This document shows positions 38,141 to 38,931 of a stretch of 64,000 bases of DNA, in pieces. The translations under genes were made by a program, and so were the position numbers. The notes beneath the pieces were generated by a model that ran no database searches, was not told the origin of the DNA, and was given only the letters and a program-made list of their open reading frames with translations. Within the stretch, counting starts at the first letter, position 1. Every line of letters begins with the position of its first letter. This stretch comes from TPA_inf: Saccharomyces (Eukaryota). Location: NCBI GenBank assembly GCA_000146045.2, contig BK006946.2, positions 736,001 to 800,000 of the forward strand, in the 5' to 3' direction.

Positions 38141-38215
38141 AGGGGGATGGGGGCTAAGAAGTCATTCACTTTCTTTTCCCTTCGCGGTCCGGACCCGGGA
38201 CCCCTCCTCTCCCCG
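38141..38215. promoter_or_regulatory. STRE cluster (AGGGG/CCCCT repeated several times) embedded in GC-rich palindromes, about 540-610 bp upstream of HOR7
   Basis: AGGGGG at 38141, TGGGGG at 38148, CCCCT at 38201, TCCCC at 38210. Perfect 10-bp palindrome GGTCCGGACC at 38186-38195 and CCCGGG at 38194-38199. HOR7 is a classic Msn2/4 osmotic-stress target (established knowledge). Confidence 0.55.
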
Positions 38216-38751
38216 CACGATTTCTTCCTTTCATATCTTCCTTTTATTCCTATCCCGTTGAAGCAACCGCACTATGACTAAATGGTGCTGGACATCTCCA
38301 TGGCTGTGACTTGTGTGTATCTCACAGTGGTAACGGCACCGTGGCTCGGAAACGGTTCCTTCGTGACAATTCTAGAACAGGGGCTACAGTCTCGATAATA
38401 GAATAATAAGCGCATTTTTGCTAGCGCCGCCGCGGCGCCCGTTTCCCAATAGGGAGGCGCAGTTTATCGGCGGAGCTCTACTTCTTCCTATTTGGGTAAG
38501 CCCCTTTCTGTTTTCGGCCAGTGGTTGCTGCAGGCTGCGCCGGAGAACATAGTGATAAGGGATGTAACTTTCGATGAGAGAATTAGCAAGCGGAAAAAAA
38601 CTATGGCTAGCTGGGAGTTGTTTTTCAATCATATAAAAGGGAGAAATTGTTGCTCACTATGTGACAGTTTCTGGGACGTCTTAACTTTTATTGCAGAGGA
38701 CTATCAAATCATACAGATATTGTCAAAAAAAAAAAAGACTAATAATAAAAA

Positions 38752-38931
38752 ATGAAGTTATCTCAAGTTGTTGTTTCCGCCGTCGCCTTCACTGGTTTAG
38801 TAAGTGCTGCTAACAGTTCTAACAGCTCAAGCTCAAAGAATGCTGCCCAACCAATTGCCGGTTTAAACAACGGTAAGGTTGCAGGCGCCGCTGGTGTTGC
38901 TCTAGCTGGTGCTTTGGCCTTTTTGATTTAA
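38752..38931 (+). CDS. HOR7: Hor7, 59-aa hyperosmolarity-responsive small hydrophobic plasma-membrane protein (absent from the ORF track because it is under 60 aa)
   Basis: ATG at 38752 and TAA at 38929-38931. Translation MKLSQVVVSAVAFTGLVSAANSSNSSSSKNAAQPIAGLNNGKVAGAAGVALAGALAFLI has a signal/TM N-terminus and a Gly/Ala-rich TM C-terminus. Found by reading the sequence. Confidence 0.85.
   Translation: MKLSQVVVSAVAFTGLVSAANSSNSSSSKNAAQPIAGLNNGKVAGAAGVALAGALAFLI

Follow-up and report, generated by a model that had tools for sequence, protein, structure and literature searches.

The HOR7 locus and its product

In this study, we analysed a 64,000-nucleotide stretch of Saccharomyces DNA (assembly GCA_000146045.2, contig BK006946.2, positions 736,001 to 800,000 of the forward strand), which is called the window below and in which positions are counted from its first letter. 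The subject is a short open reading frame (ORF) at 38752–38931 together with the GC-rich DNA upstream of it. This ORF is the already annotated S. cerevisiae gene HOR7 (YMR251W-A), and it is genuinely protein-coding. Its upstream region is very probably a compact, TATA-containing stress promoter with multiple inputs, in which constrained zinc-finger sites would account for the richness in G and C and the palindromes would be incidental. The coding feature is as follows.

38752–38931, plus strand: HOR7 (YMR251W-A) coding sequence (CDS), an ATG ORF of 59 amino acids plus stop

The 59-amino-acid product was found to be HOR7_YEAST ("Protein HOR7") by exact-sequence look-up and is present on at least 654 contigs. 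The locus is 100% identical over 2.9 kb to the S. cerevisiae chromosome record CM021139.1, and other strains show 98.6–99.9% identity. An initial annotation, made from the letters alone, had named this ORF HOR7 and had noted that it was missing from the ORF list supplied. Both statements were borne out: the protein is identical, the synteny is as expected and the substitution pattern is that of a coding sequence, and the gene is absent from the list because its 59 amino acids fall one residue short of the 60-amino-acid cut-off.

The 5′ neighbour of HOR7 is a gene with a GST fold at 36915–38015 (Pfam GST_N_2/GST_C_2), and on the 3′ side a convergent gene of 134 amino acids is followed by an EamA-family gene on the minus strand (39946–41220). 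The window shares the domain order Pyridoxal_deC, GST_N_2/GST_C_2, EamA with the loci of S. cerevisiae, S. mikatae, S. kudriavzevii and S. eubayanus. With the gene names of the yeast genome, the order is GAD1-GTO3-HOR7-YMR252C-YMR253C. In S. arboricola (locus L005, about 1200–2300), no GTO3 is called between GAD1 and HOR7, yet the DNA aligns there at about 74%, which may reflect a pseudogene or a missed call. The 3′ intergenic DNA between the convergent HOR7 and YMR252C holds two islands of moderate conservation (39027–39101 and 39152–39201; 0.48–0.58 invariant), presumably elements of the 3′ untranslated region (UTR) or the terminator.

Orthologs of HOR7 in S. mikatae, S. kudriavzevii, S. arboricola and S. 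eubayanus are 86–100% identical, with the synteny kept. In the alignment of the five species, 30 of the 43 variable CDS sites lie at codon position 3, and the sole change in length is one in-frame codon, leaving 58 amino acids in S. kudriavzevii and S. arboricola. The proteins of S. cerevisiae and S. eubayanus differ by one residue. It is reported that the HOR7 mRNA is a native translated mRNA with translation efficiency data from ribosome profiling, that it is efficiently translated from a "very short" 5′-UTR, and that it assembles 48S complexes in vitro. A tagged Hor7 fusion protein has been imaged in published work as well. Translation of the ORF, which the initial annotation had proposed to check by ribosome profiling or proteomics, is thus documented by ribosome-profiling-based and tagged-protein data. 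HOR7 has also been published as a stress-induced gene of 59 codons and an ohnolog of DDR2 (PMC3161974), it is described as Hog1-dependent, and its promoter is in use for strong expression and as a stress reporter (reporter: PMC11914649).

The hydropathy profile of Hor7p has two hydrophobic segments, at residues about 3–20 and 43–59; the N-glycosylation sequons are N21 and N24, and K2, K29 and K42 are the sole charges. The first segment has the features of a signal peptide, with Lys2 in the n-region, small residues (V-S-A/A) at −3/−1 and the conserved sequons directly after it. The second is a tail of 17 residues that leaves no cytosolic residues. The protein had been labelled a two-transmembrane protein at first. 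The two hydrophobic segments do exist, but the first resembles a cleavable signal peptide, which makes the reading as two membrane spans doubtful; from its sequence, Hor7p looks like a protein with a cleavable signal peptide and a C-terminal anchor. It is said to have been described by Lisman et al. in 2004 as a type I plasma-membrane protein.

Among 1.84 billion representatives, a profile search returned only eight relatives of Hor7p, all of 55–65 amino acids except for one fused call. The family has in common an N-terminal hydrophobic segment with a small-residue end, N-x-S/T sequons next to it, an NAA motif and, at the C-terminus, the tail AG..G..AGALAFL. One member of 61 amino acids we take to be DDR2. 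Pfam holds no family for the 59-amino-acid Hor7p.

The conserved upstream block and its candidate sites

Alignments of the intergenic region, and of the 6-kb locus in full, were made for five species spanning the genus (S. cerevisiae, S. mikatae, S. kudriavzevii, S. arboricola and S. eubayanus), and counts of species below refer to this set. The S. paradoxus and S. uvarum loci were left out, as their proteins share 90% clusters with those of other species. The features of the upstream region are listed below, with STRE for stress response element, CDRE for calcineurin-dependent response element (the Crz1 site), HSE for heat shock element, PDS for post-diauxic shift element, UAS for upstream activating sequence and URS1 for upstream repression sequence 1.

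38141–38145, plus strand: STRE1, AGGGG, exact at the aligned position in two of five species, with a G-run in all
38186–38199, no strand: palindromes 1 and 2, GGTCCGGACC (38186–38195) overlapping CCCGGG (38194–38199)
38201–38205, minus strand: STRE2, CCCCT, exact at the aligned position in three of five species
38275–38281, plus strand: putative AP-1/Yap-like TGACTAA, invariant in all five species
38341–38346, minus strand: CDRE core AGCCAC, within the 9-mer CCGAGCCAC at 38338–38346, kept in four of five species
38370–38377, no strand: putative HSE-like TTCTAGAA, invariant in all five species
38379–38383, plus strand: STRE3, AGGGG, in S. cerevisiae only (one of five), the other four reading CGCGGGC
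38420–38590, no strand: deeply conserved upstream block (UAS core), with 75% of positions invariant in the five species
38424–38438, no strand: palindrome 3, GCGCCGC-C-GCGGCGC, with three overlapping CGCCGC cores (two plus, one minus) and a GCCGCC (URS1-like) core
38445–38454, no strand: CArG/Mcm1-like box 1, CCCAATAGGG, abutting the CDRE, in all five species, with one extra A in S. arboricola and S. eubayanus
38454–38461, minus strand: full CDRE TGCGCCTC, a perfect match to the published TG(A/C)GCCNC, invariant in all five species and inside a 24-nucleotide invariant run
38487–38496, no strand: CArG/Mcm1-like box 2, CCTATTTGGG, an inverted copy of box 1 that abuts STRE4, in all five species
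38501–38505, minus strand: STRE4, CCCCT (AGGGG on the minus strand), invariant in all five species within the run AAGCCCCTTTCTGTTTTCGGCCAG and overlapping the CDRE core AGCCCC at 38499–38504
38556–38563, plus strand: PDS-like TAAGGGAT, invariant in all five species and overlapping GATAAG at 38554–38559
38632–38639, plus strand: TATA box TATAAAAG, 120 bp upstream of the ATG, exact in four of five species, S. mikatae reading TATATAAAG

The 75% invariance of the block compares with 76% for the HOR7 CDS, 56–65% for the neighbouring CDSs and 12–34% for control intergenic DNA of the same locus. Within the 6-kb locus, invariant runs reach their greatest length, 24 nucleotides, at two places that both lie in the block (AATAGGGAGGCGCAGTTTATCGGC at 38448–38471 and AAGCCCCTTTCTGTTTTCGGCCAG at 38498–38521). 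In a sliding profile the raised conservation spans about 38330–38650, and the block itself is located about 40–210 bp upstream of the conserved TATA box. The architecture is also kept: across the five species the distance from the CDRE to STRE4 is 46–47 bp, the distance between the two CArG-like boxes is 41–43 bp, and the TATA box lies 106–120 bp from the ATG, which is consistent with the reported "very short" 5′-UTR. Further copies of the block were not found in the window at up to three mismatches, and a metagenome scan gave S. cerevisiae itself only.

Conservation islands are not unique to HOR7. A second one, of about 100 bp at 41402–41500 (0.74–0.82 invariant in the five species), lies upstream of the minus-strand EamA gene. 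It holds the near-palindrome GCATTTCCTAGTTAGGAAAATGC, which resembles an Mcm1 P-box or early cell cycle box (ECB)-type site, and no tRNA was found there.

No other intergenic DNA of the window is as rich in G and C as the region upstream of HOR7. Its GC content is 44.8% for 38016–38751 and 51% for 38136–38590, compared with a mean of 34.5% (standard deviation 4.1) in 29 crude non-ORF segments of the window, which agrees with the unusual GC-richness claimed at the outset. As a control for composition, 2000 dinucleotide-preserving shuffles of the upstream region were generated. Eight (A/C)GCCNC cores are found in its 736 bp, compared with 2.6 in the shuffles, and seven of them in 175 bp (38336–38510), compared with 1.5; none of the 2000 shuffles reached eight or seven, respectively. 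It is reported that HOR7 has the highest Crz1 occupancy genome-wide in chromatin immunoprecipitation sequencing (ChIP-seq) after alkaline stress, with 59–66-fold enrichment in the class "strong", above ENA1 (PMC4992276). In C. glabrata, HOR7 has been found to depend on calcineurin and Crz1. Accordingly, the earlier suggestion that the region carries binding sites beyond those of Msn2/4 holds in so far as HOR7 is the top Crz1 target in ChIP-seq, but not as regards the palindromes, which had been proposed as the sites. The invariant full CDRE suggests that Crz1 may bind at 38454–38461 specifically. In one S. cerevisiae strain (L015), a deletion of one nucleotide was observed in this otherwise invariant CDRE (GAGGCGCA, aligned to window position 38456), which may be a true loss of the site or may reflect faulty assembly.

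The STRE density of the region is 5.4 per kb, compared with 1.05 per kb in the intergenic DNA of the window, and at least four STREs occur in 7% of the shuffles (mean 1.6; P = 0.07). Clustered STREs had been described for 38141–38215. Two exact elements are indeed there (38141–38145 and 38201–38205), but they are only partly conserved, in two and three of the five species; the TGGGGG and TCCCCG runs beside them are not STRE matches. The STREs at 38379 and 38501 had not been listed, and the latter is the sole STRE that is invariant across the five species; weaker sites of this kind are commonly turned over. Published work on a promoter section of about 600 bp described "four AGGGG binding motifs" that are "bound by Msn2 in vivo", and the four STREs found here match this count. 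HOR7 is also reported to be co-expressed with HSP12 in basally stressed cells.

The other elements are named by their resemblance to consensus sequences and are putative. The PDS-like element is presumably a Gis1/Rph1 site (consensus taken to be T(T/A)AGGGAT), the CArG-like boxes are taken to be Mcm1 sites, and the HSE, TGACTAA and URS1-like assignments are likewise assumed from consensus. No HOR7-specific literature link to Gis1 or Mcm1 was found. The HOR7 upstream region gave no consensus match for Sko1/CRE (cAMP response element), Hot1, Rap1, Reb1, Abf1, Pdr1/3 or Gcn4.

Weighing the readings of the promoter

The gene identity, the coding constraint, the pattern of conservation, and the motif matches and their enrichment were computed in this study, whereas the in vivo binding of Msn2, the top Crz1 occupancy, the Hog1 dependence and the translation are taken from papers. 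On this basis, we propose with considerable confidence that HOR7 would encode a 59-residue membrane protein of the secretory pathway and would be driven by a promoter in which stress signals converge. Hog1 and protein kinase A (PKA), through Msn2/4, and Ca2+/calcineurin, through Crz1, would act together on a core at 38340–38590, about 50–290 bp upstream of the TATA box at 38632, and transcription would start shortly before the ATG. The GC-richness would come from dense, constrained sites for C2H2 zinc-finger proteins with G/C-rich cores, namely the Msn2/4 STREs (AGGGG) and the Crz1 CDREs ((A/C)GCCNC). The PDS-like and HSE-like elements, TGACTAA and the inverted CArG-like pair would be their conserved companions. 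The base pairs contacted by each factor, like the PDS, HSE, CArG and TGACTAA assignments, are predicted from motif matches.

Several observations weigh against this proposal. Three of the eight CDRE cores are the overlapping CGCCGC copies within palindrome 3, so that the enrichment is somewhat inflated. The fragments of the Crz1 ChIP-seq are up to 500 bp long and cannot choose among the CDRE cores at 38341–38346, in palindrome 3, at 38454 and at STRE4 (AGCCCC). Moreover, Table S2 of PMC4992276 lists CTAAGCCAC, at −333 from the transcription start site (TSS), as the putative CDRE of HOR7. In the table of the same study HOR7 is induced by alkaline pH and by CaCl2, and it is not flagged as calcineurin/Crz1-dependent for its Ca/Na induction (column [5] is blank), which means that strong Crz1 occupancy need not imply strong Crz1-dependent transcription. 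In addition, the named motifs leave long invariant spacers, such as TTTCTGTTTTCGGCCAG, unexplained. Finally, the three palindromes are all fixed throughout the window and 13 further strain loci of S. cerevisiae, as a lineage-specific function would allow.

As regards the Table S2 entry, CTAAGCCAC is absent from the HOR7 promoter (38016–38751), even with one mismatch. The identical string is also given there for BDH1, TEC1, PHO89, ENA1 and GIS1 (PMC4992276). We therefore treated the HOR7 entry as unreliable, because the same 9-mer is given for at least five other genes, a pattern that resembles a spreadsheet fill artefact. The nearest core match to the "−333 from TSS" entry is CCGAGCCAC (38338–38346, minus strand).

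Regarding the spacers, we tentatively raise the possibility, which we consider rather doubtful, that the roughly 170–250-bp block is an integrator of fixed, enhanceosome-like architecture, in which the CArG-like pair brackets the CDRE and abuts STRE4, and spacers such as TTTCTGTTTTCGGCCAG take part. If so, an extra factor or cooperative binding of Crz1 and Msn2 might explain how HOR7 out-competes other promoters for Crz1.

The same block could also serve mainly for repression or cell-type control. In such a case, the URS1-like cores would serve to recruit Ume6-Sin3-Rpd3L and the CArG-like boxes would be Mcm1 sites, keeping basal expression low and repressing the gene in response to pheromone. 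The cores GCCGCC (38426–38431) and TCGGCGG (38467–38473) are each kept in four of the five species, and both CArG-like boxes are present in all five at their nearly constant spacing. Mutants of Rpd3L, Sin3 and SWI/SNF have been reported to raise the basal expression of a pHOR7 reporter, which is compatible with GCCGCC and TCGGCGG as possible Ume6 sites, and HOR7 is repressed by alpha factor according to a database description given in the PMC4992276 table. However, no paper linking Mcm1 or Ume6 to HOR7 was found, and Rpd3L effects are widespread among stress genes. The URS1 and CArG matches are to core motifs rather than to the full consensus (TCGGCGGCT is unmatched). As the principal role of the block, repression seems unlikely to us, although it is compatible with a promoter integrating Msn2/4 and Crz1 and does not exclude it.

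The GC palindromes, which the initial annotation regarded as striking in yeast intergenic DNA, are also candidates for an additional input. The first two are present where they had been reported; palindrome 3 has the reported sequence, but it lies at 38424–38438, one base before the 38425–38439 given. They might be genuine dyad sites, for example for a Zn2Cys6 zinc-cluster dimer on CGG/CCG half-sites, that provide an S. cerevisiae-specific input. The palindromes do contain CGG/CCG triplets, CCGGACCCGG fits CCG-N4-CGG, and three of the eight GC-rich palindromes of the 64-kb window fall in this region of 736 bp. However, a perfect 10-nucleotide palindrome arises in 54% of the composition-matched shuffles, and arms of at least seven nucleotides in about 10%. 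Given the composition of the region, the palindromes and the STRE count are both unremarkable; it is the composition itself that stands out.

Conservation, which had been expected of functional palindromes in a sensu stricto alignment, also argues against dyad sites. All three have lost their symmetry in each of the four species other than S. cerevisiae, and palindromes 1 and 2 exist in S. cerevisiae alone. The left arm of palindrome 3, GCTAGCGCCGC, is invariant in all five species, whereas the right arm has diverged in the other four, and S. eubayanus carries a 10-nucleotide insertion at the axis. The fixation among strains is uninformative, because the whole promoter has only 1.4–1.8 variable columns per 100 bp. 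A role of the palindromes as functional binding units is therefore unsupported, being expected from composition and unconserved in symmetry, and a dyad input at these positions is improbable. The three palindromes are best seen as by-products of GC-rich, GCC/GGC-repetitive sequence of the S. cerevisiae lineage and not as conserved dyad sites, with only the left arm of palindrome 3 (a CGCCGC core) under constraint.

It is highly improbable that the block is instead a gene missing from the annotation, whether for a structured non-coding RNA or with a small ORF on one of the strands: its conservation equals that of coding sequence and frames are open across it in S. cerevisiae (82 amino acids on the minus strand, 38384–38632; plus strand, 38492–38755), but both ORFs are broken by stops and frameshifts in the other species, the variable sites show no codon periodicity (17/11/15), Rfam gives no match at E ≤ 1, the fold z-scores against shuffles are −0.55 and +0.02 on the two strands, none of 57 RNAalifold pairs is compensatory, and the block, which is dense in matches to sites of known factors, is followed directly by a conserved TATA box. 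The plus-strand frame, which runs across the HOR7 TATA box and 5′-UTR, is called as a 67-amino-acid "protein" in some Logan/ENA assemblies. This call represents the 90% cluster to which Hor7p belongs, and it is either a spurious gene call or a clustering artefact.

Comparison with related genes and known stress promoters

HOR7 itself, its small size, its STREs, its control by Hog1 and Msn2 and its exceptional Crz1 occupancy are already known from the literature, and its promoter is routine in yeast engineering. What this study adds is modestly useful: a base-level map of constraint and a core at 38420–38590 that is conserved at the level of coding sequence, with a fixed spacing between the CDRE and the invariant STRE. 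Such a map directs promoter engineers, as well as work on target selection by Crz1 and Msn2, to the bases worth mutating. The results also illustrate that a 60-amino-acid ORF cut-off conceals real and highly expressed yeast genes, and that GC palindromes in a GC-rich promoter are weak functional evidence unless they are conserved.

The candidate inputs can be followed beyond the genus. In Logan assemblies, we found a distant syntenic ortholog (L028/L029) that is 59% identical and lies in the order GAD1-HOR7-like-EamA, without GTO3. The upstream region in these two loci has 45% GC and six STREs, and no alignable similarity to the Saccharomyces block. The upstream regions of the distant ortholog and of DDR2 (L030) carry 4–6 STREs and 3–4 CDRE cores, and their TATA boxes lie at about −110 to −130. 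The regulatory logic is therefore older than this block of sequence, as similar motif content occurs where the block cannot be aligned.

Within its own family, Hor7p shares with the other members, including DDR2 (YOL052C-A), the size class, the signal-like segment, the sequons and the AGALAFL hydrophobic tail. The two promoters resemble each other in part: that of DDR2 also has four STREs, and its TATA box lies at about −120 to −130. However, it has no sequence that aligns with the HOR7 promoter, and neither the conserved block nor a full CDRE is found in it. DDR2 is listed as a weak recruiter of Crz1 (PMC4992276).

Among the stress promoters driven by STREs, such as those of the Msn2/4 targets HSP12 and CTT1, HOR7 is similar in having multiple AGGGG/CCCCT elements in the 600 bp or so that precede the TATA box. 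It differs from them in that only one of its four STREs is invariant across the genus and in that the Crz1 core is more strongly enriched than the STRE. Compared with the Crz1-regulated CDRE promoters of ENA1, FKS2 and PMC1, HOR7 likewise has a perfect TG(A/C)GCCNC and several (A/C)GCCNC cores, whereas it is unmarked as calcineurin/Crz1-dependent for Ca/Na induction (PMC4992276).

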